A stretch of DNA of 64,000 nt from a virus, in UHGV virus genome UHGV-0073881. One strand, given 5' to 3'. The position numbers and the translations under genes were made by a program. The notes under the pieces were generated by a model. It had not been told where the DNA came from, searched no databases, and saw nothing but the letters and a program-made list of their open reading frames with translations. This document shows positions 4,442-23,376 of the stretch, in pieces (the first letter of the stretch is position 1; each line of letters opens with the position of its first letter).

Positions 4442-4588
4442 ATGTCAAATATAGTTGAAATGGTTTTTAATAATCCGGTATTCTCAGAGATGATTTTCTC
4501 GTTTATCATGATGTTACTTGTTAAAACCATGAAAAAAGCCGAAAAATTACACTCAAAGAAAAAAGCTATTGCAAACCGTTTTAAGTAA
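4442..4588 (+). CDS. hypothetical small membrane protein (about 49 aa)
   Basis: ATG 4442 behind leader CCTAAACTGGAGTTTTCACA; hydrophobic translation; not in ORF track. Confidence 0.35.
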   Translation: MSNIVEMVFNNPVFSEMIFSFIMMLLVKTMKKAEKLHSKKKAIANRFK

Positions 4589-4635
4589 AGATATAGTATC
4601 AATCAAGCCCACTTCCTAAACTGGAGAATCTAAAA

Positions 4636-4977
4636 ATGGCATACGTAACAATTATCACTGATAAAGAAAACTCTTCTTGGTCCACACAAGTAAGCGATAA
4701 AATGTCGCCTATGCAATGCCTCAAATACTTTGAGCAATGGAACAGGGGGGAAGATGTAAGCCCTTTCCAAGTAATGCAGGTTGTACATGTTGACAATGAC
4801 GGCAACAAAACTACCCTTAACACTGAATACTATGCTACACGTTTTGAGACTCGCAAAGAAGCTATGCGGGAACTAAGAGAAAAGGGCTATAGTCACATTG
4901 CCGCTTTGATTTGGTCTGATTTGCTTAAAAAACAAGCATTAACCTACGTCAAGCCTGAAAAAATCTTTATAAACTAA
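4636..4977 (+). CDS. hypothetical early protein (113 aa)
   Basis: ORF track; conserved leader. Confidence 0.6.
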   Translation: MAYVTIITDKENSSWSTQVSDKMSPMQCLKYFEQWNRGEDVSPFQVMQVVHVDNDGNKTTLNTEYYATRFETRKEAMRELREKGYSHIAALIWSDLLKKQALTYVKPEKIFIN

Positions 4978-5199
4978 TCAACAACTTACAAAATTCTTTG
5001 AAAAAACTGTTGACATTGCCCCTTGACAATAGTACATTTGTTCGAGGGGGTTTATCTAAAGGGATTCACTTAAAAGATTCTTTATAGATAAGCGAAAAAG
5101 TACTTGCAATCAGATTTCAAAACAAGTAAATTACTAAGCAACGGGGAGGGGATGACCTTCCCCACTAAGTAAAGTCCTTAAACTAGGAGATTCTAAAAA

Positions 5200-5448
5200 A
5201 TGTATACTAAAACACAACTCAAAAGCATGGTAAACAGTGGTTTAATGAATGATGTTTATAAGGATTGCAGACGTTACGGGGAAATAAGAGAGATAATTGA
5301 TTATGAGTATACTCACACAATAAATTTCAAAACTAATGAAAAACGGACTGACTTTATAACTGTAGTGATTATTGAATACAAAAATTTATTGTGGACTTTT
5401 GAGCTGGTGAAAGGTGAGTGTATAGAAATCGAATACAAGGCCGCTTAA
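5200..5448 (+). CDS. hypothetical early protein (82 aa)
   Basis: ORF track; leader variant with AGGAG. Confidence 0.55.
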   Translation: MYTKTQLKSMVNSGLMNDVYKDCRRYGEIREIIDYEYTHTINFKTNEKRTDFITVVIIEYKNLLWTFELVKGECIEIEYKAA

Positions 5449-5500
5449 AAGTACTTTATAGGGGGATTAAAAGCTGACACCTTAAGCCCCCAAACACCTT
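5448..5500 (+). repeat. conserved intergenic cassette type A (degenerate copy)
   Basis: AAGTACTTTATAGGGGGATTAAAAGCTGACACCTTAAGCCCCC. Confidence 0.45.
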
Positions 5501-5504
5501 TACA

Positions 5505-5537
5505 GCCCCTTTTGTCTCTCTCATAGGGGCTTTTTTT
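5505..5537 (+). terminator. rho-independent terminator ending the early block
   Basis: stem GCCCCT/AGGGGC, 14-nt loop, then TTTTTTT. Confidence 0.6.
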
Positions 5538-7100
5538 ACGTCTATGTAATAGCCCCTCTCAAATGCTTATATAAACCCTTCCCCTGTCCTTTCCAGAATC
5601 TTACAAGACCTTAAAAAGCAATAACTCTATAGCTTACTCTATAACCTCTTATCAAATCAACTTAAATATAAGCCCATAACCCGAAAGGGAAGGGCAATCC
5701 CTTAAACGCTCTATAACGCTCTATAACGGCTTATCAACTCAACTTAACCAATCATATTAACCCACTCTTAAAAGCCCTCTATAGAGCTTCATAGACCCTT
5801 AAAAGAATCTTATAAGGGGTGTAAGCTTTATCATCTCGTTAGTATCTTGTGAATAGTTAAACAGGGGGCTTGTTATTAGCTTAAAAGTATGTTATAGGGG
5901 CTTAAAAGTAGCTATAAAGTTACGTAAAAGTATCGTAAATGCTAGCCCCCTTAACATTTCTTTAACAATTTCTTAACAATCCCTACATAGTTATGCTTAT
6001 TAGAGACTTGTTAGCACCTTGTTAAATCTCTGTTAAGACTATGTTACAACCTTGTTAGATTCTTTGGAGTCCCTATATAAGCCCCTGTAAAGGGCTATAA
6101 AGAGCTATACAGTCAGTTGGGCTATAGTTACTATGGAGAACCTTAGAAATGGCTGTATAGAGCTATACAGGGCTTTTAAGAGGGCTTTTAAGAGAATCAC
6201 TGAGAAAGATAGGGAACTATAGACCAAGAGATAGTGACATGTTAACAGCTTGTTAAAAAGGTTAAACACTTGTTAGGAACTTGTTAATAATCTTAACAAA
6301 ATAACTCTTAACATTTAACTACTCAACTCTTGTTAGCAATCTGTTAAGACTCTGTAAAGACTATGCAACAACTGTTAAGCACTTGTTACAATCTTGTTAG
6401 CTCTGTTAAGGGTCTATTAAGAACTCTGAAGAGATGTTAAGAGGATGTAGTAACTGTTAAGAAATTGTTAATGATATTTTAAGATTTTGCAAAGGGTATG
6501 TTACAGGGATGTTAAGGGCTACCAAGCAGATATACACCCTAGACAGATATTTTTCAGTTCCTTCAAAGAACCTAAATAAAACACTTGACAGTCTATTTTA
6601 TAAAAATTTTATAGAACTGAATAACTATCTATACACTATCTAGTATAAAACAGGTAATAACAGGCTTATAAGATACCTTGTTAGTACCGTGTTAGACCTT
6701 GTAGGATAAGCCTTAGAAGGGAATACCTGTTTAGTGCTATATAACAGTCTATATAGAGGCTTAGTAAACCCTAGTGAACCATCTATAGAGAGTCACATAG
6801 TTAACATAGAGATTAAGATGGGTATAGGAGCTTCTAAGGGGTTGTTAAGATGTTAGGAAGGGGGTTGTATAGGTGGTTAAGAAGGCTTGTTAGAGAGCTT
6901 GTTAGAGGGCTATTTAGAAGGGGCTATACAGTTCACTATATCGAATCACTAGAAAGAGACTAAGAGGCTATATAGATACTATATAATACTATATAGAGAG
7001 TATGCTTAGATAGGTTGTTTAGAAGGGCTAGATATTTTATCACATATCATGGTGACCCAAGATGAACGTAGTGAATCCAAATTTTATAAAATTATAAATT
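5538..7100. repeat. ORF-free repeat-dense region (short TTGTTA / CTGTTAAG / CTTGTTAG and CTATACAG / CTATATAG repeats)
   Basis: no ORF of 60 aa or more on either strand; dozens of short direct and palindromic repeats, densest 5930-6480 and 6650-7000. Confidence 0.6.
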
Positions 7101-7114
7101 TCGTAAATTTTACT

Positions 7115-7165
7115 CAATAAAAAGCCCCTATGAGATAGATTCTATCGAATCCATATTAAGGGGCT
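7115..7165 (-). terminator. terminator-like hairpin ending the leftward block
   Basis: minus strand: stem AGCCCCT...AGGGGCT followed by TTTTATT; long loop. Confidence 0.4.
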
Positions 7166-7417
7166 GTAAAGTTCTTAGCAAAGGTTATCTATGATAGCCT
7201 GAATAGCTGGAATAGTTGTGTGATAAAAATGAGTGTTTCCATTATGAGCTTCTCTCTCTTGTAACATGATAGAGTGACCCTTTACAGGGAAGCATTGAAT
7301 GTGATAACGATTCCCGTTAAATATTGCTCCACCACCTGAACAGAAACCTTCCAAGACTGACTTAGCAAGGAACTCATTTTCGCTACCTCTAAAGAGGGGC
7401 TGTTACACCCCTTTAAA

Positions 7418-7654
7418 TCACTCTTCAGTCTTCTTCTCATCAGACTTTTTAGTTTTCTTATCAACTTTCTTAGGCTTCTCTTCAACCTTAGCTTCTGGTT
7501 CATTTTGAGTTGCCTGAATAGCAATGTCCAGAAGTTTTGCCAAGTCTGATTTAATCACCGTAACAGGTTGCTCATTGTAGTAGCTCTTGTCAAGGTGCTC
7601 TTTCAGTTCATTAAGAGAGCTAAAGCCGAATGGCTGGATAGGTGTCTTAATCAT
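7418..7654 (-). CDS. hypothetical protein with K/E-rich C-terminus (78 aa)
   Basis: ORF track; preferred over overlapping 7282-7524. Confidence 0.5.
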   Translation of the reverse strand: MIKTPIQPFGFSSLNELKEHLDKSYYNEQPVTVIKSDLAKLLDIAIQATQNEPEAKVEEKPKKVDKKTKKSDEKKTEE

Positions 7655-7728
7655 TCATTACTCCTTATAAGCATCTTCCAAAATGTGTTTATTAATCATC
7701 TCTGCAATTGCATAACGAATACAGATAA

Positions 7729-8235
7729 CTAGAATTTTAGGTTGCATTCTTTACTCACTTCTTCAAATTTCTGTTCATGTTCCAAGGCTTTCTTCCTGTG
7801 GAACCTCATTCTTAAGTAGGCTGCAATCATACCACCTACAGGAAGCACATACAAGAACCAAATTTCTTCGATTTTGTTTATTGACTGCTTAATAGTCATT
7901 TCTTGACCGTAAAAAGCTGTTATAGCCACTGCACAGACCATGATAAAGAACATTGCCAAGAATACAATCATTCCTGCATAGGCTCTTACGTGCTGTTCTG
8001 ATAAAGTCTGCTTGTTCTTTGCATCAATCAGTCCGTTGTAGTCATTTGAAAAGTCCCTGTAGAAAGCTTTCAAGTATTCTCGGCTATAACCTTCAAAACA
8101 ACCTGTGCCAAACCAATCATCCCCTCCAAAGTGGGAAATTACACCCGTTTCACCGTTTGCTTTAACAATCTTGATAGAAACATGGTGCTTAGATTTTGTA
8201 TGGGAAATCTGGTCTCTTTCTTCTAACATAATCAT
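7729..8235 (-). CDS. hypothetical membrane protein (168 aa)
   Basis: ORF track; ATG start; two hydrophobic segments in C-terminal half. Confidence 0.6.
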   Translation of the reverse strand: MIMLEERDQISHTKSKHHVSIKIVKANGETGVISHFGGDDWFGTGCFEGYSREYLKAFYRDFSNDYNGLIDAKNKQTLSEQHVRAYAGMIVFLAMFFIMVCAVAITAFYGQEMTIKQSINKIEEIWFLYVLPVGGMIAAYLRMRFHRKKALEHEQKFEEVSKECNLKF

Positions 8236-8453
8236 TGTTTAATCCTCTCTAAACGTGCATTCCACTCAATGTCAATCATTTTCTTAAAAGTTTTTCCCCT
8301 TGGGGTTACATTTGGAATGCCTTCATCTGCTGTGCAATAGAGAATATCCCCTCTTGCTGCTTTACCGTAGCACTGTTTGATTTTCTTGGCTCTCCTGTAT
8401 GACTCTGCTGCTGCAATCATCCAGTACTCACCTAAAGTTGTAAACTTTTTCAT
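8232..8453 (-). CDS. hypothetical protein (73 aa)
   Basis: ORF track; overlapping start-stop with neighbours. Confidence 0.5.
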   Translation of the reverse strand: MKKFTTLGEYWMIAAAESYRRAKKIKQCYGKAARGDILYCTADEGIPNVTPRGKTFKKMIDIEWNARLERIKQ

Positions 8454-9151
8454 TCGTTCACCATTGCGTTGTAAAACTGTCTTTGAATTTCTTCAGCAAT
8501 TTGATGAGGTGTCAAACCAGCTTTCAGCATCATTCTCACGGTGTATTCAATATTTCCGTGGTTTACTACTCTGTCAGCGATAAAGGCAGCCTCTTTAAAC
8601 TCTTCAGCTTTCTTCTTAGCGTCTTCACATGCCCCTGTCAAGAGGGAAGAAAACTTTTTATGTGGTGGTAACCAATGATGGTGTGGATTGTTGGAAGTAA
8701 ATGCTTTGAAGAACTCTCCAACATGGTCAACAACTCTTGAATCTCCACCTTTTACATTCAGTTCTGTGGTGTAACGGTTTTCATGCTTTGGTAAATCTTC
8801 AATCTGAAGAATCTTATGAGTAGGCTCAATAGTCACGTCTACAGAACGAATCTTTGGAGTTGTCTGAGATTCTTCGTGACGAATGAACAGAATGTCTTTA
8901 AACTGCCCTGTGAACTGACCACTTGAGTACTCATCAGTAGAGTAGATGATACCTGCGTGTAACACTCCGAGAGTACCTTGTGGGTTATGTCGATAATCTT
9001 TAAACATCAGTTTCTTAAGTGGTCTGAAAAAGATACGCCCAGATTCTGCTACGTGCGTAATCTCAGCCTGAGTAGAATCTTGACCATTGTAACGGTTTCC
9101 TAAAGAAACCTGAATAGTAATCTTGTCACCAGCTTTTGGTTTAGTGTTCAT
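8450..9151 (-). CDS. hypothetical protein (about 233 aa)
   Basis: ORF track 8450-9166; start moved to ATG with GAGGA RBS (MNTKPK). Confidence 0.6.
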   Translation of the reverse strand: MNTKPKAGDKITIQVSLGNRYNGQDSTQAEITHVAESGRIFFRPLKKLMFKDYRHNPQGTLGVLHAGIIYSTDEYSSGQFTGQFKDILFIRHEESQTTPKIRSVDVTIEPTHKILQIEDLPKHENRYTTELNVKGGDSRVVDHVGEFFKAFTSNNPHHHWLPPHKKFSSLLTGACEDAKKKAEEFKEAAFIADRVVNHGNIEYTVRMMLKAGLTPHQIAEEIQRQFYNAMVNE

Positions 9152-14454: not shown

Positions 14455-15870
14455 ATGAGCGAATTATTTGACCACTCAAACCTTCATCAAGGTCGTACTG
14501 AAAATGGTGCTGTAAACCACACCTCTTCAATGTCAGCCTCGGTAGACTTCTACAAAGCTGCTGGCTCTAGCCGCAACTACGTAGAGAAACTTCCAAATCT
14601 TTTCTACAAAGCTTTACGGGAAGATATTGATGTTGCTGTACGAATCCTGCTTCATATGCGAGATGCACGAGAAGGTATGGGTGAGCGTAAAGCGTTCAGA
14701 ACTGTTTTGACTGAATCCATCAAAAGCAACATCCTAGACTCTTTCCAAGTTCTACGTATCATGGAAAAGATTTCTGAACTAGGCCGTTATGATGACTTTA
14801 AAATCTTCGTAGGTACTCGATACGAAACAGATGCTTTCAAACAACTTGAAGCAGCACTGTTAGACCCTAACACTGCACAGTTAGCTGCAAAGTGGTTGCC
14901 AAGGGTTAAGCGTCGTCATATGAACTTTGTAAACCGCTTCTGTAAGTTTGCAAAGCTAAGTCAGAAAGAGTACCGACTGTTACTGTCAGCCTTGTCTGAT
15001 ACGGTTGAGCAGAAGATTTCTGCAAATGCTTTTGGAGAGATTGATTACAGTAAAATCCCTTCACTGGCTGCTGCACGTTACCAGAAGCTTTTCGGTCGTA
15101 AAGATGGTGAGCGTTACAAAGCATACATTGAAGCTCTTACTAAAGGTGAGACCAAGATTAATGCTGGTGCAGTTTACCCATACGATGTGATTAAGTCAGT
15201 AAATTACGGAAACGCTACAGTTGCCAATGAACAATGGAAAGCTTTATCAAACTGGATGGCAGATGGTGAAAACATTCTCTGCATGACAGACGTATCAAGC
15301 TCTATGACTTGGGAAAGACACGGTGCAGTTACTGCTTTAGATATTGGTATGTCTCTTGCATTATACGTCGCAGAACGCAACACAGGTTGTTTTAAAGATG
15401 AGTTAATGGTTTACTCCAGCAGACCTCACTTTATTACACTGAGTGGAGATTTAGCACAACGTAAGCGTCAGGTAATGTCTCATGTTGAGTATGGTTCAAC
15501 TAACCTTCAAGCAGCATTTGACAGAATTCTTGAAATTGGTGTTAAAAATGGCTTGACACAAGAAGCTATGCCAAGTAAGCTTATTATCTTCTCTGATATG
15601 GAATTCAATCAGGTTGATGGTGCAAATGGTCTTACTAACTTTGAAGCAATTCAGAGTAAGTACAAAAAAGCTGGATATGAGATGCCACAACTGGTATTCT
15701 GGTACTTAGCTGACCGTAACGGTAATTGCGAAGTATCTGTAAAGGATAACGGAGTAGCAATGGTTTCAGGTTTCTCTCCAGCCACCTTAAAAGCTTTGCT
15801 TGGTGGTGAGAAGTTTGACCCTATCAGCGTAATGCTCAAAGCAGTAATGATTGAACGCTACGATTGGTAA
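14455..15870 (+). CDS. vWA-domain protein with Ro60/TROVE-like architecture (471 aa)
   Basis: C-terminal vWA with MIDAS motif DVSSSM, GSTN and IIFSDMEF segments; order and spacing resemble the Ro60 C-terminal half; N-terminal 270 aa helical domain unassigned. Confidence 0.7.
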   Translation: MSELFDHSNLHQGRTENGAVNHTSSMSASVDFYKAAGSSRNYVEKLPNLFYKALREDIDVAVRILLHMRDAREGMGERKAFRTVLTESIKSNILDSFQVLRIMEKISELGRYDDFKIFVGTRYETDAFKQLEAALLDPNTAQLAAKWLPRVKRRHMNFVNRFCKFAKLSQKEYRLLLSALSDTVEQKISANAFGEIDYSKIPSLAAARYQKLFGRKDGERYKAYIEALTKGETKINAGAVYPYDVIKSVNYGNATVANEQWKALSNWMADGENILCMTDVSSSMTWERHGAVTALDIGMSLALYVAERNTGCFKDELMVYSSRPHFITLSGDLAQRKRQVMSHVEYGSTNLQAAFDRILEIGVKNGLTQEAMPSKLIIFSDMEFNQVDGANGLTNFEAIQSKYKKAGYEMPQLVFWYLADRNGNCEVSVKDNGVAMVSGFSPATLKALLGGEKFDPISVMLKAVMIERYDW

Positions 15871-16035: not shown

Positions 16036-16112
16036 CTCTGTTTAGCTCAGTTTGGTAGAGCGTTCCGTTTGGGGCGGTAAGGCCAGAGGTTCAAGTCCTC
16101 TAACAGAGACCA
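16036..16112 (+). tRNA. tRNA-Pro (anticodon TGG), isotype tentative
   Basis: acceptor CTCTGTT/AACAGAG, D-stem GCTC/GAGC, T-arm AGAGG-TTCAAGT-CCTCT, anticodon loop TTTGGGG, CCA encoded. Confidence 0.7.
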
Positions 16113-16119
16113 AATTAAT

Positions 16120-16194
16120 GTCGTAGAAGGCAAATGGTTAGCCACCTGACCTTCAATCAGTTGCTCGCGGGTTCGAATCCCGTCTACGACTCCA
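16120..16194 (+). tRNA. tRNA, anticodon TTC (Glu?), isotype uncertain
   Basis: acceptor GTCGTAG/CTACGAC, T-arm GCGGG-TTCGAAT-CCCGT, CCA encoded; anticodon loop CCTTCAA has C at position 33. Confidence 0.6.
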
Positions 16195-16200
16195 AATTTG

Positions 16201-16269
16201 ACAGAAGACCAAATACAGCAAACAACTTTTACTTTTCGCGCATAGAAAACATAAAAAGCTTGGTCTGGT
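16201..16269 (+). repeat. tRNA-array spacer module A (ACAGAAGACC ... ACAGCAA ... GGTCTGGT)
   Basis: conserved 5-prime ACAGAAGACC and 3-prime GGTCTGGT ends with AT-rich core; 4 copies in array. Confidence 0.6.
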
Positions 16270-16279
16270 CATTAAGAAT

Positions 16280-16356
16280 TGCGGGTATAGAGAAAGGGCG
16301 TCTCACATGTCTCATTAGCATGGTATCGGTAGGTTCGACTCCTGCACCCGCCTCCA
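16280..16356 (+). tRNA. tRNA-Met-like (anticodon CAT)
   Basis: acceptor TGCGGGT/ACCCGCC (1:72 mismatch), T-arm GTAGG-TTCGACT-CCTGC, loop CTCATTA, CCA encoded; weak D-stem. Confidence 0.6.
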
Positions 16357-16361
16357 AATTT

Positions 16362-16425
16362 ACAGAAGACCGTTTACAGCAATTCAAACAATTTTATCGG
16401 AAAATTAAAATGAATACGGTCTGGT
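16362..16425 (+). repeat. tRNA-array spacer module B
   Basis: ACAGAAGACCGTTTACAGCAA ... ACGGTCTGGT. Confidence 0.6.
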
Positions 16426-16437
16426 AATGTTAAACAT

Positions 16438-16514
16438 GGTTAGGAAGCACATAAGGCATGTGCGGTCGGCTGTTAACCGAATGGCACAGGGTTCGAATCC
16501 CTGACTAACCGCCA
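16438..16514 (+). tRNA. tRNA-Asn (anticodon GTT)
   Basis: acceptor GGTTAGG/ACTAACC, D-stem GCAC/GTGC, T-arm CAGGG-TTCGAAT-CCCTG, loop CTGTTAA, CCA encoded. Confidence 0.75.
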
Positions 16515-16524
16515 AAATTTAAAT

Positions 16525-16612
16525 GCGTCGTTATCCCGTAGATGGAAGCGGTGGTGACTGTAAATCACTTGTCATTACGACTCGGTAGGTTCGACTCCTT
16601 CACGGCGCACCA
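16525..16612 (+). tRNA. tRNA-Tyr (anticodon GTA), class II with long variable arm
   Basis: 88 nt; acceptor GCGTCGT/ACGGCGC, anticodon stem GGTGA/TCACT loop CTGTAAA, T-loop TTCGACT, CCA encoded. Confidence 0.7.
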
Positions 16613-16618
16613 AATAAA

Positions 16619-16696
16619 GGTTATGTAGTTTAATCTGGTTAAAATACCTCCCTGTCACGGAGGAAGATGTGGGTTCGAATCCCATCGTAACCGCCA
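16619..16696 (+). tRNA. tRNA-Asp (anticodon GTC)
   Basis: acceptor GGTTATG/CGTAACC, anticodon stem CCTCC/GGAGG loop CTGTCAC, T-arm GTGGG-TTCGAAT-CCCAT, CCA encoded. Confidence 0.75.
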
Positions 16697-16754
16697 ATTT
16701 TGAGAAGGGCTTTTTAGCCCCTCCCTTAAAGAGTTCTTGCGAGTATTCTTTAAA

Positions 16755-16835
16755 GGAGCAGAAGACCAAATTCAGCAAGCAACAAAAATATTTCAAGCCA
16801 ATTAATTTGAAAAATTTAAAACTTGGTCTGGTTCC
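16755..16835 (+). repeat. tRNA-array spacer module C
   Basis: GCAGAAGACCAAATTCAGCAA ... CTTGGTCTGGT. Confidence 0.55.
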
Positions 16836-16844
16836 AACAAATTT

Positions 16845-16969
16845 ACAGAAGACCGTTTACAGCAAGTTAAACAATCTAATTCTCTATGAAAGAAAGGGCG
16901 AAGGTTCGATTCCTTCACACGTTACGGCGTGTTGGTGTAATGGCAGCACTTAAGATGATACGGTCTGGT
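16845..16969 (+). repeat. tRNA-array spacer module D, carrying a tRNA-like T-arm and acceptor-like hairpin
   Basis: ACAGAAGACCGTTTACAGCAA ... GAAGG-TTCGATT-CCTTC (16900-16916), ACACG-TTACGG-CGTGT hairpin (16917-16932) ... ACGGTCTGGT; no full cloverleaf. Confidence 0.55.
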
Positions 16970-17118
16970 AATCCTCTTTGCAGTGACTTATGGAGCTAAT
17001 ATATCGTCCCATGAGTGCCGATGAATCTCTTGAGCATGATTCTAGATTAGCTTACTAAGAGATGACTCTACAAACCCTTTAGCAAGGTTTGCGTAGGTTA
17101 CTGCAAAGATGATTTAAT

Positions 17119-17194
17119 GGAAGTGTAGCAGAATGGTGATGCGGCAGACTTTTAATCTGACAGGCGATGGGTTCGAATCCCTCCACTTCTACCA
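17119..17194 (+). tRNA. tRNA-Lys (anticodon TTT)
   Basis: acceptor GGAAGTG/CACTTCT, anticodon loop CTTTTAA, T-loop TTCGAAT, CCA encoded. Confidence 0.7.
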
Positions 17195-17279
17195 AATTCG
17201 CCCTTAATTGAAGAATACCTACTTCGCGGCTGGAAACACCCACGAAAAATCAATTCTTCTCCAAAGGGCAACTTATTAC

Positions 17280-17356
17280 GGTTCAGTCGCAGATAAGGTA
17301 ATGCAAGGGTTTCATAAGCCCTATGAATGTGGGTTCGACTCCCATCTGAACCTCCA
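17280..17356 (+). tRNA. tRNA with anticodon CAT (Met or Ile2)
   Basis: acceptor GGTTCAG/CTGAACC, anticodon stem AGGGT/GCCCT loop TTCATAA, T-arm GTGGG-TTCGACT-CCCAT, CCA encoded. Confidence 0.75.
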
Positions 17357-17358
17357 AT

Positions 17359-17433
17359 TGTGGGTTAGCATAAATGGTAATGCAAACGGCTGATAACCGT
17401 TAGAAGAGGGTTCGATACCCTCACCTACAACCA
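17359..17433 (+). tRNA. tRNA-Ile (anticodon GAT)
   Basis: acceptor TGTGGGT/ACCTACA, D-stem GCA/TGC, anticodon stem AACGG/CCGTT loop CTGATAA, T-arm GAGGG-TTCGATA-CCCTC, CCA encoded. Confidence 0.75.
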
Positions 17434-17448
17434 ATTCCAATAAAGTTG

Positions 17449-17477
17449 TTGACATTAACATGTGACCACTTTATAGT
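17449..17477 (+). promoter_or_regulatory. strong sigma70-like promoter inside tRNA array (TTGACA-N17-TATAGT)
   Basis: -35 TTGACA 17449-17454, 17-nt spacer, -10 TATAGT 17472-17477; followed by about 320 nt with no ORF and no canonical tRNA. Confidence 0.55.
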
Positions 17478-17801
17478 AACTAAAATACTTCATAATATGT
17501 ATAATTCAAACACCAATACATGAGCGTTAGACGTAACACAATGTGGGGAAATTTGTTGTACATATTCTGAATAGTTTTCGTTAGTGTAGCGTCTATTTTG
17601 CAAACTTAAAAATAAATGCAAACGATAATGTTTTTCTGGCAGTAGCTTAATAGGCTAAACACCAGTGAGGTCTTCCAATCCCTCATCAAAGAATTTGGCG
17701 TACTAGCCCACGGTATGATTAATAAAGTGGGCGACATTCTAAAGGGTATCCCTTATGGGGCTTGGCTTAAATGCAATGAGTACCCTTTAAAATGTTAATT
17801 A

Positions 17802-17883
17802 CGGGGCGTATCTCAGCGGTCTTCTAAACCGCCGTTAACCGAGTAAGTGGAGTATGCGGGTTCGAGTCCTGCCGCCTCGACCA
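17802..17883 (+). tRNA. atypical tRNA-like gene (Arg TCT-like anticodon arm), possible pseudogene
   Basis: acceptor CGGGGCG/CGCCTCG, T-arm GCGGG-TTCGAGT-CCTGC, CCA encoded; stem GCGGT/ACCGC with loop CTTCTAA but no canonical D-arm and a 23-nt segment before the T-arm. Confidence 0.4.
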
Positions 17884-17898
17884 ATTTTGGATGAAATC

Positions 17899-18246
17899 AT
17901 GAAGACTTGTATTAGGTGCAAACTTAGCAAGGATGAAAATGATTTCTACATGAAAGATGGTAGGAGAACTCATTCATACTGTAAAAAGTGTGTTAATGAG
18001 CAAACCATAGAAAGACAAAGAGCACTTAAACTTTCAGCTGTTGAGTACAAAGGTGGGGTTTGTCATGATTGTGGTAAAAGGTATCATCCAGCAGTGTATG
18101 ACTTCCATCATTTGAATCCTTCAGAGAAAGATTTTAACATTGGTCATAGAAAAAGTCTTAAGTTCTCTCAGGAGCTAAAGAACGAACTTGACAAATGTGT
18201 TTTGCTATGTTCAAATTGCCATAGGGTAAGACATGCAAAGTATTAG
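17899..18246 (+). CDS. HNH endonuclease (zinc-finger plus HNH) embedded in tRNA array
   Basis: CxxC...CxxC and FHHLNPSEKD...LLCSNCHRVRH motifs; ORF track 17854 start lies inside the tRNA, so start moved to ATG 17899. Confidence 0.8.
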   Translation: MKTCIRCKLSKDENDFYMKDGRRTHSYCKKCVNEQTIERQRALKLSAVEYKGGVCHDCGKRYHPAVYDFHHLNPSEKDFNIGHRKSLKFSQELKNELDKCVLLCSNCHRVRHAKY

Positions 18247-18383
18247 TTAGCAGATTGCTTAGACGACCTTAACGGGTCTCCTGTAAGGAGGTGGTCTGTA
18301 TCTCATGTTTCCAGAGCATGTAAAAATATTCTGAGAAGGGGCTTTACAGTGTTGTGATAATACGGTAAGCTTCGAATTATAAT

Positions 18384-18466
18384 ATGGGACGATGTTAAGA
18401 CTCTAAGGCATGAGCAACGGCTTCCAACACCGTTTCAAAGGGGTTCAACTCCTCCGTCCCATGCCA
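18384..18466 (+). tRNA. tRNA, possibly Trp (anticodon CCA); atypical
   Basis: acceptor ATGGGAC/GTCCCAT, T-loop TTCAACT, CCA encoded; stem AACGG/CCGTT around TTCCAAC; extra nucleotides between acceptor and D region. Confidence 0.45.
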
Positions 18467-18478
18467 AAGTCTTATTAG

Positions 18479-18567
18479 GGGTAGGTAGCGGCTAATGGTA
18501 GCCAAACTGTCTTGAAAACAGTTGCCACTGTAGAGATACGGTGAGGGTTCGACTCCTTTACTTACCG
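18479..18567 (+). tRNA. tRNA-Ser (anticodon TGA), class II
   Basis: acceptor GGTAGGT/ACTTACC, D-stem GGC/GCC, anticodon stem ACTGT/ACAGT loop CTTGAAA, long variable arm, T-loop TTCGACT; CCA not encoded. Confidence 0.7.
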
Positions 18568-18817
18568 CCTAATAAGATTTAAAGCCGCGCTTCGTTCGGA
18601 TGTTGCGTTAGGTTTCACTTCGTGTATTGTCGTACACGATGTTGAGAAAGCACCTAGTAGGTGTCACGGAGAAGAGATAGCATCAAGCTCTCCAAAGGTT
18701 CTAGTCACCGGATTAAACAAGACTATGCAAAGACTGATTAGGTCTTTTTAGATAACTTCTGAGGCAAACTATACCATTGTTGCTTTGGGTCTTGGAAGTT
18801 CTCTACAAAGATTTAAT

Positions 18818-18894
18818 GCACCTATAGCCCAATTGGAAGAGGCAGCAGACTTAGAATCTGTTCAGTGTGAGTTCGACTCTCTCTAGGTGTACCA
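18818..18894 (+). tRNA. tRNA with anticodon TAG (Leu-type anticodon, class I length)
   Basis: acceptor GCACCTA/TAGGTGT, D-arm CCCAATTGGAAGAGG, anticodon stem GCAGA/TCTGT loop CTTAGAA, T-loop TTCGACT, CCA encoded. Confidence 0.6.
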
Positions 18895-18901
18895 AATTAA
18901 T

Positions 18902-18977
18902 GCAGGTGTAGCAAAATGGTTATGCGGCTGACTCTTAATCAGTAAGACGATGGGTTCAATTCCCTCCACCTGTACCA
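18902..18977 (+). tRNA. tRNA with anticodon CTT (Lys?)
   Basis: acceptor GCAGGTG/CACCTGT, anticodon stem GCTGA/TCAGT loop CTCTTAA, T-loop TTCAATT, CCA encoded. Confidence 0.6.
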
Positions 18978-18983
18978 AACATT

Positions 18984-19059
18984 GGGGATGTAGTTTACAT
19001 GGTTAAAACATAAGTTTTGCAAACTTAAGTACAGGGTTCAATTCCATGCTTCTCCACCA
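18984..19059 (+). tRNA. tRNA-Ala (anticodon TGC)
   Basis: acceptor GGGGATG/CTTCTCC with G3:U70 identity pair, anticodon stem TAAGT/ACTTA loop TTTGCAA, T-loop TTCAATT, CCA encoded. Confidence 0.75.
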
Positions 19060-19065
19060 ATTAGT

Positions 19066-19140
19066 GCATCCATAGTTTAAACGGGAAAATTACAGTCTTC
19101 CAAACTGAGGTTGAGGGTTCGATTCCCTCTGGATGCTCCA
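19066..19140 (+). tRNA. tRNA-Gly (anticodon TCC)
   Basis: acceptor GCATCCA/TGGATGC, T-arm GAGGG-TTCGATT-CCCTC, anticodon loop CTTCCAA, CCA encoded. Confidence 0.75.
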
Positions 19141-19146
19141 ATTCAT

Positions 19147-19222
19147 GCTCCTATCGTATAACTGGCTATTACGGTTGTCTTGTAAGCAACTTATCAGGGT
19201 TCGAATCCTTGTGGGAGCACCA
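19147..19222 (+). tRNA. tRNA-Thr (anticodon TGT)
   Basis: acceptor GCTCCTA/TGGGAGC, D-stem CGTA/TACG, anticodon stem GTTGT/GCAAC loop CTTGTAA, T-arm CAGGG-TTCGAAT-CCTTG, CCA encoded. Confidence 0.7.
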
Positions 19223-19316
19223 ATTTGAGGTCAAGTGAAAGACCGCTTGAGTCAACTGAAGACCGTAACAAATTCCACGGAGTTGAGTTAGCGGCACAAC
19301 TTCAGACCTCTTTAAA

Positions 19317-19391
19317 GCTCGCTTAGTTTATATGGTAAAGCCCCATCCTTACAAGTTGGTGAAGAAGGTTCAAGTCCTTCAGCGAGTACCA
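19317..19391 (+). tRNA. tRNA-Val (anticodon TAC)
   Basis: acceptor GCTCGCT/AGCGAGT, T-arm GAAGG-TTCAAGT-CCTTC, anticodon loop CTTACAA, CCA encoded. Confidence 0.7.
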
Positions 19392-19392
19392 A

Positions 19393-19470
19393 GTTCCAGT
19401 ATCCCAATTGGCAGAGGATGCAAGCTCAAACCTTGTATTAGTGACGGTTCGAATCCGTCTTGGAACACCA
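19393..19470 (+). tRNA. tRNA with anticodon CAA (Leu-type anticodon, class I length)
   Basis: acceptor GTTCCAG/TTGGAAC, D-stem ATCC/GGAT with loop CAATTGGCAGA, anticodon stem GCAAG/CTTGT loop CTCAAAC, T-arm GACGG-TTCGAAT-CCGTC, CCA encoded. Confidence 0.65.
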
Positions 19471-19487
19471 AATTTTAGGAGATTCCT

Positions 19488-19700
19488 ATGAAGCCTTATG
19501 GTAGACACGGTAAAGTTGAAATTGCAAGTTGTGGTTGCTGTGCTTCTCACGATGGTGAAGAAGATTACTACAAGTGGCGTACAGACCATCGTAGACGCTT
19601 TCTCAGAAGAGATAAGAAGAAAGCTAGACAGGAATCTCGAAAAGATATTGCAGAATTAGTTCAAATGGATAGAGCAGCAACCTACGAAGTTGTTAGTTAG
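19488..19700 (+). CDS. hypothetical small basic protein (70 aa); 3-prime end overlaps tRNA-Arg
   Basis: ORF track; RBS AGGAG 7 nt before ATG; last 50 nt overlap the tRNA at 19650. Confidence 0.35.
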   Translation: MKPYGRHGKVEIASCGCCASHDGEEDYYKWRTDHRRRFLRRDKKKARQESRKDIAELVQMDRAATYEVVS

Positions 19701-19723
19701 GGGTTCGAATCCCTTATTCTGCA
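19650..19723 (+). tRNA. tRNA-Arg (anticodon ACG)
   Basis: acceptor GCAGAAT/ATTCTGC, D-stem GTTC/GAGC, anticodon stem GCAAC/GTTGT loop CTACGAA, T-arm AGGGG-TTCGAAT-CCCTT; CCA not encoded. Confidence 0.75.
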
Positions 19724-19744
19724 CAAATTTTAGAAGGTAATTAT

Positions 19745-19972
19745 ATGCGTAAACTCATTATTGAAAGGCATAAAGATGCTGACAAGATTGAAACAACACA
19801 AGTTGGGGACACTGACTTCATTCTTGTAGGTTGGAAATGTGACCCAATAGCAGCTATGAAGGTTGTTCATGGTTTTGCAGGAATTGAATTTAATCAAATC
19901 ATATTTGAAACGCTATTACCAGAAAATCAGGATACGTGTAATAACGCATATATCCTGACAAGAGTTCGTTAG
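19745..19972 (+). CDS. hypothetical protein (75 aa) between tRNA genes
   Basis: ORF track; ATG start; stop abuts tRNA-Gln. Confidence 0.4.
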   Translation: MRKLIIERHKDADKIETTQVGDTDFILVGWKCDPIAAMKVVHGFAGIEFNQIIFETLLPENQDTCNNAYILTRVR

Positions 19973-20046
19973 GGGATTAGTTTACAAGGTTAAAACCTCG
20001 GTCTTTGAAATCGAAGAAGTTGGTTCAATTCCAACATCCCCCGCCA
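19971..20046 (+). tRNA. tRNA-Gln (anticodon TTG)
   Basis: acceptor AGGGGAT/ATCCCCC (1:72 mismatch), anticodon stem TCGGT/ATCGA loop CTTTGAA, T-arm GTTGG-TTCAATT-CCAAC, CCA encoded. Confidence 0.7.
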
Positions 20047-20048
20047 AT

Positions 20049-20127
20049 GCTCCATTACTCCAATTGGCAGAGAGGCCAGACTTAAAATCTGTGTTATGTA
20101 TCGGTTCGAATCCGATATGGAGTACCA
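20049..20127 (+). tRNA. tRNA with anticodon TAA (Leu-type anticodon, class I length)
   Basis: acceptor GCTCCAT/ATGGAGT, D-arm CCAATTGGCAGAG, anticodon loop CTTAAAA, T-arm ATCGG-TTCGAAT-CCGAT, CCA encoded. Confidence 0.65.
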
Positions 20128-20133
20128 AATATT

Positions 20134-20209
20134 AGCAGTGTAGCATAACTGGCAATGCTCCAGCCTCTGAAGCTGAAAGATTAAGGTTCAAATCCTTACA
20201 CTGCTGCCA
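20134..20209 (+). tRNA. tRNA with anticodon CTG (Gln)
   Basis: acceptor AGCAGTG/CACTGCT, D-stem GCAT/ATGC, anticodon loop CTCTGAA, T-arm TTAAG-GTTCAAAT-CCTTA, CCA encoded. Confidence 0.65.
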
Positions 20210-20240
20210 CTTCTAAGGGTTCTTACGAGAGTCCTTAAAT

Positions 20241-20317
20241 GTGGCCTTATCATAAATGGATAATGACCCATGCTGTGAACATGGTCTATACGGGTTCGAT
20301 TCCCGTAGGTCACCCCA
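20241..20317 (+). tRNA. tRNA-His (anticodon GTG)
   Basis: acceptor GTGGCCT/AGGTCAC with C73, D-stem TCAT/ATGA, anticodon stem CCATG/CATGG loop CTGTGAA, T-arm ACGGG-TTCGATT-CCCGT, CCA encoded. Confidence 0.75.
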
Positions 20318-20324
20318 ATTTTAA

Positions 20325-20401
20325 TAGCTCAATTAGCTTATATGGTTAAAGCGCGTGTCTGAAAAACATGAGAACAGGGTTCAAATCCCGATGGGCTACC
20401 A
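20325..20401 (+). tRNA. tRNA-Phe (anticodon GAA), irregular acceptor/D junction
   Basis: anticodon stem CGTGT/ACATG loop CTGAAAA, D-stem GCTT/AAGC, acceptor TAGCTCA/TGGGCTA, T-loop TTCAAAT, CCA at 20399-20401. Confidence 0.6.
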
Positions 20402-20417
20402 ACTTTATAGGTGCATA

Positions 20418-21152
20418 ATGAAAGAGATGACAGGACAAGGTAAAGAGATTTTCAATCTCCTTAAATCCGGTAACGGGTTCTCTAACCCTCTTATTACTGG
20501 TGCAGCAGTTCTTGGTGGTACAGTTGCTGCTTCTCAGTCATTAATCACTTCAATTAGTTCTGTATCAGACCCAGCTACCCAGCAAATCCTTATTGCTGCT
20601 GGCTTGACAACTGCCTTACTAAGCAGCTTTACAACAAGCCTTGGTAGCACCACTTCAACGACAACTACTTTAACTGACTATGGACAGAAGTCTGTAGATG
20701 AGTTTTCACAGCGTATGCAGGTAGCCAAAGGATACTCTAATGTTATGGGAGCAGCGGGTGAACAAGTTGGATGTACACCGTTTAGTGGAATCATGGGAGT
20801 TGCTACTGAATACGGTAACAAGGCTATGGATTTGATTAACACCTCCATAGATGCCGTAAACAGCGTTCTAAGCGACTTACAGGATGCAATTGATAAAGGA
20901 CTAGCAACCATCTCTGACCTCGCTACACAAGCTGTTACAGCGATTAATGAAGGTATGGCAAAGATTACTGCCTACGCTAATGAAGTGGCTCAGATGATTG
21001 CAGACGAAGCAGCAATGATTGCAGAGTATCTAAAAACCAATATTAATGGTTTCCTTGCAAATGTTTTACCAGATTGGTTTAACGATGATTGTAAGACGGG
21101 TGTAATTGATACAATTGCAACTCCAGAGATGAAAGAAGCTCTAAACAAATAA
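20418..21152 (+). CDS. hypothetical Ala/Ser/Thr-rich protein embedded in tRNA operon (about 244 aa)
   Basis: ORF track 20355-21152; start moved to first ATG after tRNA-Phe (MKEMTGQ) with AGGTG RBS. Confidence 0.6.
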   Translation: MKEMTGQGKEIFNLLKSGNGFSNPLITGAAVLGGTVAASQSLITSISSVSDPATQQILIAAGLTTALLSSFTTSLGSTTSTTTTLTDYGQKSVDEFSQRMQVAKGYSNVMGAAGEQVGCTPFSGIMGVATEYGNKAMDLINTSIDAVNSVLSDLQDAIDKGLATISDLATQAVTAINEGMAKITAYANEVAQMIADEAAMIAEYLKTNINGFLANVLPDWFNDDCKTGVIDTIATPEMKEALNK

Positions 21153-21155
21153 TTT

Positions 21156-21248
21156 GGAAGATTAACCCTAAAAGGTAAGGGAGCAGTTTGCTAAACTGCC
21201 AGTAGCTGAGAAATTGGTGTACCAGTTCAAGTCTGGTATCTTCCTCCA
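21156..21248 (+). tRNA. tRNA-Ser (anticodon GCT), class II
   Basis: 93 nt; acceptor GGAAGAT/ATCTTCC, D-stem CCC/GGG, anticodon stem GCAGT/ACTGC loop TTGCTAA, long variable arm, T-arm ACCAG-TTCAAGT-CTGGT, CCA encoded. Confidence 0.75.
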
Positions 21249-21254
21249 AATTTT

Positions 21255-21330
21255 GCATTGGTGTCAGAAATGGATATGTACCTGTCTGCAAAACAGGTTT
21301 ATGAGGGTTCGAGTCCCTTCCAATGCTCCA
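21255..21330 (+). tRNA. tRNA-Cys (anticodon GCA)
   Basis: acceptor GCATTGG/CCAATGC, anticodon stem CCTGT/ACAGG loop CTGCAAA, T-arm GAGGG-TTCGAGT-CCCTT, CCA encoded. Confidence 0.8.
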
Positions 21331-21552: not shown

Positions 21553-21753
21553 ATGAACGAGACTAACATTTATAAAGATTTTTACGAAGCACAGCAGCAA
21601 GTTAATCTGCTGAAAAATACTATCATGTCTATTGCTGAACGTCTAATTACGGCTACCGGTATTAAACCAGAAGAAGCAACAATGGACAGTCTTCTTGATG
21701 CTGTAGATGCCAAGTTTGGTGTATGTAAAGAAGAAGAAGCTAAACCTGAATAA
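21553..21753 (+). CDS. hypothetical small protein upstream of terminase (66 aa)
   Basis: ORF track; RBS GGAGAAATACA before ATG. Confidence 0.5.
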   Translation: MNETNIYKDFYEAQQQVNLLKNTIMSIAERLITATGIKPEEATMDSLLDAVDAKFGVCKEEEAKPE

Positions 21754-21774
21754 TTCTATTTGCAGAGGTGCTTA

Positions 21775-23376
21775 ATGGATTTAAATGCTATTAAGCAGAA
21801 GCGAGTGGAAGATGTAAGGAAAGTCCTAGCTGGAGAGTTGGGGCTTTCTGAAGAAGTAAAAGAAATTATCAAATCATTTGGTAAAGACCCGTCTAAATTC
21901 CTTCCTACTCAGATTCTGACTTTATTAAGATATTCACCAGACCAAGTAAGACTCATCTTTAAATTGATGACTGACAAGAACTACGTAGCTCCACAGCCTG
22001 GGTCTCAGGAAGTATTCTTGAACACTAATGCTGACTTGGTGCTATATGGTGGTGCTGCTGGTGCTGGTAAAACGGCTGCCCTTTTAATGGACTCATTACG
22101 ATTCATTGAAGACCCTAACTATAATGCTGTATATTTCCGTCGAAATACTACGCAGCTACAAGGGGGTTTATGGCCTGCTGCTAAAAAGCTATTTGGTAAG
22201 TTTGGTGGTACTCCACACGAACAGAAAATGACTATTACATTCCCTTCAGGAGCTACTATTAAGTTTACTTACTTGGAACTTGAAAAACACTCAGAAGGTC
22301 ACCAAGGGATTGAATACTCTGCTATCTACTTTGACGAAGGTACACACTTCTCAGCTTCACAGATTTCATATCTGCAAACACGTTTACGTTCTGGTGCTGA
22401 AGGTGACTCATACATGAAGATTTCTATGAACCCTGATAGAGACCACTTCATCTATGATTGGGTAGAACCTTTCCTTGATGAAGACGGTTATCCAGACCCT
22501 GACAAGTGCGGTAGAATTCGTTGGTATGTTATGAATGATGGTGTGATGGTTTCTGATTGGGACAGAGATAAGATTCTCGAAATGTTTCCTCTTGAGATTC
22601 CTCAAACATATACCTTCATTTCTGGTACAATTGATGATAACCCAATCCTTGACTTCTTGGAGCCTAAGTATCGTGGTAAGCTTGAAAACAACACTCCAGT
22701 TAACGTAGCAAGACTTCGTTTTGGTAACTGGAAAGCTCGTGCTGAAGGTTCTAACTATTGGCAAAGGCAATGGTGTGAGATTGTTGACAGTGTTCCACCA
22801 GATATCTTTGATGTTCGAGCATGGGACTTAGCGGCTACTTTACCATCTGAAGTCAACCCTAACCCTGACTGGACAGCGGGTGTCAGAATGGCTAAATCTA
22901 AAAAAGATGGTTGCTATTATGTCATGAACGTAGTAAGATTTAGGGATAGACCTTCTGGAGTCGAGACACAAATTAACTTGACTGCTGAAAGCGACGGTAA
23001 GCGCACAGGTATTTTTATCCCTCAAGACCCCGGCGCTGCTGGTAAATCCTACGCAACATCCCTTATCAGAAAGCTTGCTGAGAAAGGCTACAGAGCAAGA
23101 GCAAAACCAACAAACAAAGATAAAGTCACCCGTTTTGCGGGTTTCTCTGCTGCTTCTGAAGCAGGATTGGTTAAGATTGTCAGAGGTAGCTGGAACGAAG
23201 CTTACTTCCAAGAACTAGAAGGTTTTTGTGGAGATGGTAAGACCAAGGATGACCAAGTGGATGCTACAAGTGATGCTTTCAACAGTCTCAATGAGGTAAA
23301 ACTGTTTAAGCCACCTTCAATGGGAACTCACACAGATTTAGTGAGAAATAACCCTTATGAGGGACTTAGACGCTAA
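21775..23376 (+). CDS. terminase large subunit
   Basis: Walker A LYGGAAGAGKTAAL and Walker B-like IYFDEGTHF; start moved from TTG 21760 to ATG 21775 with GAGGTG RBS; heads the morphogenesis module. Confidence 0.85.
   Translation: MDLNAIKQKRVEDVRKVLAGELGLSEEVKEIIKSFGKDPSKFLPTQILTLLRYSPDQVRLIFKLMTDKNYVAPQPGSQEVFLNTNADLVLYGGAAGAGKTAALLMDSLRFIEDPNYNAVYFRRNTTQLQGGLWPAAKKLFGKFGGTPHEQKMTITFPSGATIKFTYLELEKHSEGHQGIEYSAIYFDEGTHFSASQISYLQTRLRSGAEGDSYMKISMNPDRDHFIYDWVEPFLDEDGYPDPDKCGRIRWYVMNDGVMVSDWDRDKILEMFPLEIPQTYTFISGTIDDNPILDFLEPKYRGKLENNTPVNVARLRFGNWKARAEGSNYWQRQWCEIVDSVPPDIFDVRAWDLAATLPSEVNPNPDWTAGVRMAKSKKDGCYYVMNVVRFRDRPSGVETQINLTAESDGKRTGIFIPQDPGAAGKSYATSLIRKLAEKGYRARAKPTNKDKVTRFAGFSAASEAGLVKIVRGSWNEAYFQELEGFCGDGKTKDDQVDATSDAFNSLNEVKLFKPPSMGTHTDLVRNNPYEGLRR

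Follow-up and report, generated by a model that had tools for sequence, protein, structure and literature searches.

What is the role of a region in a phage genome that carries no genes, is crowded with short repeats and is closed on both sides by terminators pointing into it? The question is raised by UHGV-0073881, a 64,000-nt stretch of viral DNA whose whole length is referred to below as the window, and more precisely by its positions 5538–7280. An earlier note on the window had described this region as free of open reading frames (ORFs) and had proposed it as a replication origin, a packaging or injection-control site, or an array of binding sites for a regulator. BLAST identifies the source of the window as a Felix O1-like myovirus (Ounavirinae): the region is matched by 255 phage records, all but one of them named Felix O1-like, which belong to Felixounavirus, Mooglevirus and Suspvirus and mostly show 80–90% identity. 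The reading favoured here, to which we give a probability of about 80%, is that the gene-free region is the concatemer junction, that is, the genome terminus, of this phage, whose repeat arrays would position the cleavage that forms the ends. Among the functions proposed earlier, packaging or terminus is the one that the evidence supports, the TTGTTA-rich core (5930–6480) coinciding with a direct terminal repeat (DTR) at 5945–6523; an origin or a regulator array found no support, and for injection control the evidence points in neither direction.

Predicted terminal repeat and genome ends

As shown by homology to relatives with mapped ends, positions 5945–6523 (579 bp, ±2 nt) constitute the predicted short, exact and non-permuted DTR of this phage. 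Many relatives' records have their first or last nucleotide in the region, invariably at one of two points, and some of them carry the sequence in between as an exact duplication at both record ends, namely E9 (580 bp), CRP22 (579 bp), ECP2307 (592 bp), Pr103Blw (581 bp) and the Kolesnikvirus SPARTY (439 bp). The boundaries of the duplication in these five relatives match 5944/5945 and 6523/6524 to the nucleotide. Record annotations tell the same story: a 581-bp “short direct terminal repeat” is annotated at both ends of Pr103Blw and aligns to 5945–6523, and a 618-bp DTR annotated in UAB_69 (1912–2529) aligns to 5943–6525. The terminus analysis of virion DNA that the earlier note had recommended has in fact been done in relatives, and the ends fall exactly here. 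For UAB_Phi87, Bal31 digestion, which revealed two discrete Bal31-sensitive fragments, together with run-off sequencing defined a 608-bp DTR (PMC4837284), and PhageTerm assigned DTRs of 581 bp to Pr103Blw (PMC8303462), 613 bp to Ro111lw (PMC6454146) and 439 bp to SPARTY (PMC8928762). Short terminal repeats were also inferred by Whichard et al. for Felix O1 itself, whose map was opened arbitrarily at rIIA (PMC3185647), and the Felix O1-type TerL was assigned to a DTR cluster by Bardina 2016 (PMC4837284).

Orthologues of the core thus carry the same sequence at both virion ends, as seen in the five records and in UAB_Phi87, and these ends are fixed, sequence-defined and non-permuted, since the boundaries of independent records coincide inside invariant blocks. 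A headful pac site was considered and rejected, the boundaries in relatives being exact and identical and the PhageTerm class being DTR. Because the core is orthologous to the DTR of relatives and is present as a single copy in the window, the region can be read as a concatemer junction with one collapsed DTR copy, accompanied by non-coding flanks of ~0.4 kb and ~0.6 kb; the single collapsed copy is explained by the source record having been opened elsewhere. Virion DNA would start at ~5945 and end at ~6523 one full genome later. On this predicted linear map, the left flank would be the unique sequence just inside the right-end copy of the DTR, and the right flank that just inside the left-end copy. 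The DTRs of UAB_Phi87, Ro111lw, Pr103Blw and SPARTY are orthologous to the one described here, with ~80–90% identity in Felixounavirus, Mooglevirus and Suspvirus, the same boundaries (GCCCCCTTAACA ... GGGCTACC / AAGCAGATATACA, the slash marking the cut here and below) and the same convergent gene blocks around them; there is no essential difference, the present case having 579 bp and a single collapsed copy inside the window. Since such a feature has already been identified in Felix O1-type phages, the finding counts as explained and of an ordinary kind.

The coding content agrees with the gene-free character claimed earlier, except at the right edge. The ORF-free span extends over 5449–7174, from the stop of an 82-residue ORF (5448) to the stop of the first leftward gene (7175), and its longest ORF encodes 54 amino acids (6105–6269, minus strand); the right edge had been set ~105 nt too far, since 7175–7354 is coding. 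Small annotated genes do not account for the region. When 12 mini-ORFs were followed in an alignment of 12 genomes, to which the conservation percentages and column identities given below refer, 11 were broken in most relatives. The sole intact one, in 12 of 12 relatives, is a 26-residue ORF with a GTG start (6457–6537, minus strand), for which no upstream Shine-Dalgarno sequence was seen by eye. It straddles the cut at the right genome end and would therefore be present in concatemeric DNA only, and its intactness is probably a by-product of the strong conservation of that block. Small genes were accordingly rejected as an explanation, this ORF being the only conserved one. No gene is annotated in the region between the convergent terminators in the carefully curated records of Moogle, wV8 and AYO145A, and automatic annotations place three to five “hypothetical proteins” under the match in several records. 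The features of the junction and its surroundings are collected in Table 1.

Table 1. Coordinates of the predicted junction, its repeat modules and its outer limits in the window
Feature	Positions	Strand	Details
Intrinsic terminator closing the rightward gene block	5504–5538	+	Hairpin 5504–5531, then U-run; z ~ -3; annotated at the equivalent place in Moogle and AYO145A
Left non-coding flank	5538–5944		Holds CTCTATAAC, CTTAAAAG and a 29-nt repeat pair (5637–5665, 5719–5747)
Left end-forming site TGCTA/G	5940–5945	+	Predicted cut 5944/5945 (±2 nt)
Predicted DTR	5945–6523		579 bp; alignments to Pr103Blw and UAB_69 DTRs, end duplications in relatives
Left inverted-repeat arm	5948–5988	-	Three TTAACA (reverse TGTTAA) at 5951, 5962, 5973, 11 bp apart
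Array A	6007–6062	+	Five CTTGTTAR-type units at exact 11-bp spacing: 6009, 6020, 6031, 6042, 6053
Central DTR module	6063–6235		CTATAAAG, CTATACAG, GGGCTTTTAAGA, CTATAMAG and CTTTTAAG units
Array B	6238–6313		TGTTAR at 6240, 6251, 6271, 6282; then reversed copies at 6293, 6308
Array C	6329–6471	+	~12 TGTWAV units in 11-bp-phased blocks: 6331, 6342, 6353; 6373, 6384, 6395; 6404; 6435; 6455, 6466
Right inverted-repeat arms	6445–6518	+	6445–6483 and 6499–6518, complementary to 5948–5988
Subfamily-invariant 17-mer TTAAGATTTTGCAAAGG	6479–6495	+	28 bp inside the right end
Right end-forming site, bottom strand TGCTT/G	6523–6536	-	Predicted cut 6523/6524, then 13-mer AAGCAGATATACA (6524–6536)
Right non-coding flank	6524–7115		TGTTAG pairs 6679/6690, 6888/6900; GCTTGTTAGAGA 12-bp repeats 6885–6918; CTATATAG repeats 6737–6758, 6968–6999
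Intrinsic terminator closing the leftward gene block	7118–7165	-	Hairpin 7165–7123, U-run 7122–7118; z ~ -3; annotated in Moogle, wV8 and AYO145A
First leftward gene, 3' end	7175–7354	-	Conserved hypothetical protein; tblastn matches in 252 phage records, up to 93% identity; outer limit of the element, not part of it

Phased repeats and symmetric ends

When considered from the point of view of its sequence, the junction is dominated by short repeats, much as had been claimed. The motif TGTTAR occurs 30 times in 5538–7280, a density of 17.2 per kb that compares with 1.75 per kb in the remaining window, and 23 copies lie in the 579 bp of the predicted DTR, for which 500 dinucleotide shuffles gave an expectation of 1.6 ± 1.2 and a maximum of 6. 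CTATAYAG is present ten times (0.4 expected) and is 119-fold denser inside the region than outside, and the broader family CTNNNNAG reaches 57 copies against 10.8 expected. Hardly any copies of the repeat motifs occur in the other 62 kb of the window, and such an essentially complete confinement argues that they are not general, genome-wide promoter elements. Base autocorrelation peaks at a lag of 10–11, with z = 6.3–8.9 in the core, where the 11-bp phasing within the DTR attains z = 8.9, and z = 3.5–4.9 in both flanks; a coding control gave no such peak. Tandem Repeats Finder reports 18 short arrays, all with a period of 10–12 except for two with periods of 15 and 24. The palindrome that had been pointed out in the TTGTTA-rich core is indeed there, TGTTAACA lying at 6240–6247 within Array B.

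These repeats are conserved. TGTTAR positions show 95% conservation compared with 78% for other DTR positions (Mann-Whitney p = 1e-12, related genomes and adjacent columns being treated as independent). Kolesnikvirus lies across the midpoint root of the subfamily, its deepest split, and shares an overall identity of 53% with the window; what survives in it is the left-end TTAACAA, TTAAGATTTTGCAAAGG, AAGCAGATATACA and four or five of the TGTTAAGA units. In terms of the individual modules, TGTTAAGA and TGTTACAACC of Array A are invariant even in Kolesnikvirus, as are several units of Array C, and the TTAACA copies of the left arm recur in SPARTY at unchanged distances of 17 and 28 nt from the end. 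Array B reaches an identity of 0.93 over 6249–6298. The central module, which contains an internal inverted repeat (6071–6102/6153–6184), is the least conserved part of the DTR (0.69–0.80). As for the flanks, the left one has a mean column identity of 82%, a lag 10–11 periodicity of z ~4 and no conserved ORF, and the right one an identity of 77%, with comparable TGTTAR pairs in the right flank of SPARTY. An AT-rich block in the right flank, CTATTTTATAAAAATTTTA (6593–6611), 70 bp outside the right DTR boundary, is invariant in the 12 genomes and not conserved in Kolesnikvirus; the palindromes TTTTATAAAA and AAAATTTT lie within it, and it may act as a bend, as an unwinding element or as a site bound by a protein.

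Length changes in the region come in discrete sizes. Comparison of 5538–7115 with 11 relatives yields 30 insertions or deletions (indels) of 1–2 nt and clusters of 11–12, 21–27, 32 and 45–46 nt, the remaining lengths below 20 nt being single events of 4, 6 and 14 nt. Such unit-sized indels explain the range of DTR lengths from 579 to 618 bp, and they are compatible with slippage by whole units and with preservation of helical phase alike.

The two boundaries are themselves well defined. On the left, the repeats of E9, CRP22, Pr103Blw and ECP2307 open with GCCCCCTTAACA (beginning GCCCCC) after ATGCTA, that of SPARTY opens with GCCAC after ...GGTTA, and an invariant block, TAGCCCCCTT at 5943–5952, spans the cut. 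On the right, AAGCAGATATACA directly follows the DTR in all five DTR-bearing records, as it does in the window, where it is unique, and the invariant block spanning the cut is TGTTAAGGGCTACCAAGCAGATATACA at 6510–6536. When read on the strand whose 5' end each cut creates, the predicted cut sites are inverted copies of TGCTW/G, namely TGCTA/G on the top strand (5940–5945) and TGCTT/G on the bottom strand (6528–6523). The DTR annotated in UAB_69 (TAGCCC...CTACCAA) is 2 nt longer on each side than the duplications of E9, CRP22, ECP2307 and Pr103Blw, an offset that may be an artefact of method or may mean that the ends are not blunt; with its boundaries 2 nt farther out per side, the symmetry of the cut sites is kept as TGC/T. 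Close to the right end, the 17-mer TTAAGATTTTGCAAAGG is identical in the window, SPARTY, phiEa21-4 and SE5, and lies within the sole blastn match to Kolesnikvirus. A scan of IMG/VR for TGCAAAG-N20-40-AAGCAGATATACA, aimed at more distant lineages, yielded as homologous loci only the 30 with the 29-nt spacing of the family, the other 25 matches being chance occurrences inside genes.

Symmetry extends beyond the cut sites. The arrays, mostly of one orientation, are turned round at the left boundary, so that the DTR has inverted-repeat ends: its left 40 nt form an imperfect inverted repeat of both 6445–6483 and 6499–6518, each 85% complementary. The match between the terminal inverted repeats within a genome exceeds all 200 shuffles in 6 of 6 genomes. 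Since the left end is complementary to the right arms, a single strand folds as a panhandle (z = -3.7), and the displaced DTR strand could form one. In SPARTY, both arms carry the genus-specific AATGTTGCAGAKATGTTAA, and this suggests that their likeness is maintained. The literature examined on Felix O1-like DTRs gives their length and existence only, and no description was found in it, for the Felix O1 group, of phased conserved arrays, quantised indels, inverted-repeat DTR ends, symmetric cut sites or invariant right-boundary blocks.

A possible mode of end formation and competing explanations

How might such a junction be turned into two identical ends? From the features above we infer a role of the region in packaging or end formation, and a tentative model, which we consider possible rather than probable, has a single strand-specific nuclease cutting the inverted TGCTW/G sites, positioned by a protein that coats the arrays and the inverted-repeat ends. 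The 11-bp-phased TGTTAR arrays would be the binding sites of an end-recognition protein, possibly TerL itself or else an accessory or small subunit of the terminase. Assembled along one side of the helix, this protein would direct cleavage to both boundaries, where the inverted-repeat ends would offer it the same surface. One nuclease would then make two nicks 579 bp apart, on the left in the top strand and on the right in the bottom strand, an arrangement with which the inverted TGCTW/G sites fit. Subsequent strand-displacement synthesis would give each daughter end a full copy of the DTR. Duplication by displacement synthesis follows the classical Watson-type model, which was put forward for T7. 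As the core recognition site, the strongest candidate is TTAAGATTTTGCAAAGG, followed after 28 nt by the cut and then by AAGCAGATATACA.

Among known systems, the concatemer junction of T7 is the closest analogue. Its 160-bp terminal repeat lies in a 736-bp ORF-free stretch, and in our analysis 20 TAAAG units with a 13-bp period (z = 9.4) are distributed over the terminal repeat and both flanks. T7 and the Felix O1 type share fixed, non-permuted ends and a short, exact terminal repeat embedded in arrays of a 5–7-bp motif at near-helical spacing, and the present region shows the same architecture, being ORF-free with its terminal repeat inside phased arrays. There is, however, no sequence similarity, the period is 13 bp in T7 and 11 bp here, and the terminal repeat of T7 is 3.6 times shorter. 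Moreover, its motifs point almost all one way (20 forward, 3 reverse) and lack inverted-repeat ends, and inspection of its two cut sites shows no inverted symmetry between them. T7, a podovirus, also encodes its own RNA polymerase, has promoters beside the terminal repeat and possesses a small terminase subunit that is known. In pacL/pacR of SPP1 and cosB of lambda, the cleavage site is likewise flanked by short boxes that recur on one side of the helix and bind protein. These phages have cohesive or headful permuted ends and an identified small terminase subunit (TerS), in contrast to the exact DTRs, the lack of a detectable TerS and the arrays over ~1.6 kb found here.

With regard to the proteins, TerL is encoded at 21760–23376 (phrog_979; Terminase_6N, Terminase_6C). 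Immediately upstream, a 66-residue ORF (21553–21753, plus strand) matches phrog_4397, whose function is unannotated, and has no Pfam domain; by position it is a candidate packaging accessory protein. A small terminase or DNA-binding protein was sought in this ORF and the flanking genes, which gave only PHROGs without functional annotation and nothing above the Pfam curated cut-off. Felix O1 has no recognisable small terminase either (Whichard 2010, PMC3185647).

Several points weigh against reading the region as a junction whose arrays position cleavage. The ends of this phage are predicted from orthology, the end data coming from relatives, and the boundaries given by PhageTerm-type records and by the UAB_69 annotation are 2 nt apart. 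No TerS was detected with PHROGs and Pfam, and no array-binding protein was found. The symmetry of the cut sites is a post hoc observation on 6 nt, and is weaker in SPARTY, where 4–5 of 6 positions agree. The conservation test counts related genomes and adjacent columns as independent, slippage alone, without selection on phase, can yield unit-sized indels, and a different DNA-binding role, such as an origin, end protection or ejection, would account for the conserved motifs just as well.

The alternatives have to be judged against this background. A replication origin, which may coexist with the DTR and which we hold to be unlikely, would have the TGTTAR arrays as iterons for a phage initiator and the AT-rich block at 6593–6611 as an unwinding element. 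A secondary origin is located near the left end of T7, and clustered direct repeats beside an AT-rich block are the common trait of iteron origins (lambda ori, P1, F, pSC101). Here, too, the direct repeats are dense, phased and conserved in a probably non-transcribed region between convergent terminators, and the invariant, palindromic CTATTTTATAAAAATTTTA beside the arrays keeps a secondary origin role alive. The term iteron-like, used in the earlier note, nevertheless captures the look of the repeats and not their dimensions: the units are 11 bp long with a 6-bp core, as opposed to the 17–22 bp of iterons. In addition, the arrays are delimited by the genome ends and symmetric, as inverted repeats, about the DTR, neither of which an origin needs; 5538–7115 contains no DnaA, IHF or Fis consensus site; and the flanking genes show no initiator match or domain in PHROGs and Pfam. 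GC skew, once suggested as a sign of an origin, follows gene orientation instead, and was rejected as a signal because its extremes coincide with gene-strand changes and not with this site. Control of ejection or entry, or protection of the ends, appears quite improbable. It supposes that ~1 kb of gene-free DNA at the first-entering end binds a host or virion protein that pauses or drives entry or shields the DNA from exonucleases, much as at the T5 injection-stop region or the leading end of T7, and it would be in keeping with the conserved repeats and with the ~1.0–1.2 kb without genes that each virion end would carry. In T5, the injection-stop is a repeat-rich non-coding stretch linked to a terminal repeat of ~10 kb with pre-early genes. 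The DTR described here is gene-free and has 579 bp; it thus lacks the pre-early genes of T5, and there is no conserved inward-pointing promoter of the kind seen in T7, nor is two-step transfer reported in the Felix O1-like phage literature examined. T5 with its injection-stop region was actually the first guess, dropped once BLAST gave Ounavirinae; a T5-type injection stop does not fit a 579-bp DTR without conserved ORF.

Could the repeats, vice versa, have no function at all, being a satellite generated by replication slippage in the absence of coding constraint, with only the two cut sites mattering? The unit-sized indels are what slippage predicts, and the DTR varies between 439 and 618 bp among relatives. 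The motif cores are, however, far more conserved than the spacers, single TGTTAAGA units keep their positions on either side of the Kolesnikvirus split, where the background identity is 53%, and the non-coding region (~0.8 identity) is better conserved than its terminator edges (0.2–0.6), which makes a satellite very improbable. A regulatory array of operator or promoter elements, or a locus for a structured non-coding RNA, is scarcely credible. One sigma-70-like TTGACA occurs at 6585, yet its spacer to the best -10 element is 19 nt, it reads TTGATA in most relatives and is absent in Sf13, and the total of sigma-70-like matches (11) is that of shuffled sequences (11.1); the near absence of the motifs from the rest of the window also speaks against regulation. 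As for RNA, the left flank (z = -3.0) and the DTR (z = -3.7) fold better than shuffles, but the right flank does not on either strand, the terminators on both sides point inward, Rfam gives no match at E <= 1 in 4500–8500, and ARAGORN finds no transfer RNA (tRNA) in the region. An RNA gene was therefore rejected, the fold signal of left flank and DTR being explained by inverted repeats in the DNA.

Surroundings of the junction and significance

The terminators that the earlier note had placed on both sides of the region are present as hairpins, each with a U-run, and transcription arriving from either side would halt at them, ahead of the gene-free flanks. The two convergent structures (5493–5535 and 7119–7176) are mutual inverted copies, with 95% identity over 21 nt and 89% over 19 nt. 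A hairpin module of ~24 bp, ATGAGRTAGATTCTAYCGAATC (7130–7152), is confined in the window to the leftward terminator; Moogle and VpaE1 carry it as an insertion directly after AAGCAGATATACATC, and it also occurs in the left flank of skuden and Moogle. It behaves like a small duplicating hairpin cassette, as far as its distribution among these genomes suggests.

Beyond the leftward terminator, 7175–7654 (minus strand) contains three overlapping ORFs in different frames (7175–7354, 7282–7524 and 7418–7654), whereas relatives have one gene of 183–222 codons beside the junction (Felix O1 ORF24, Moogle gp102). Of the three, the first corresponds to the C-terminal part of the conserved protein, and the last represents phrog_4457 in full length; the layout could reflect a different gene arrangement or a frameshift. 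Farther away, 23 tRNA genes are clustered at 16036–21330, and upstream of them 14455–15870 encodes a 471-residue phrog_850 “RNA-binding protein”, the equivalent of which in the relative Bas63 has been termed Ro60-like in a paper.

For the annotation of this genome, the analysis means that it physically starts at ~5945 and ends at ~6523 one genome later, as predicted from its relatives, that a 579-bp repeat is to be added to the linear map, and that the small ORFs called by pipelines in the region should be dropped. The Felix O1 group is widely used in Salmonella typing and biocontrol. The TGTTAR arrays, the symmetric cut sites and the two right-boundary blocks are targets for mutagenesis and binding studies, for packageable vectors and for the rebooting of synthetic genomes. 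If the single-nuclease model is true, it would be the first sequence-level, testable model of terminal-repeat duplication in a myovirus without a recognisable small terminase.

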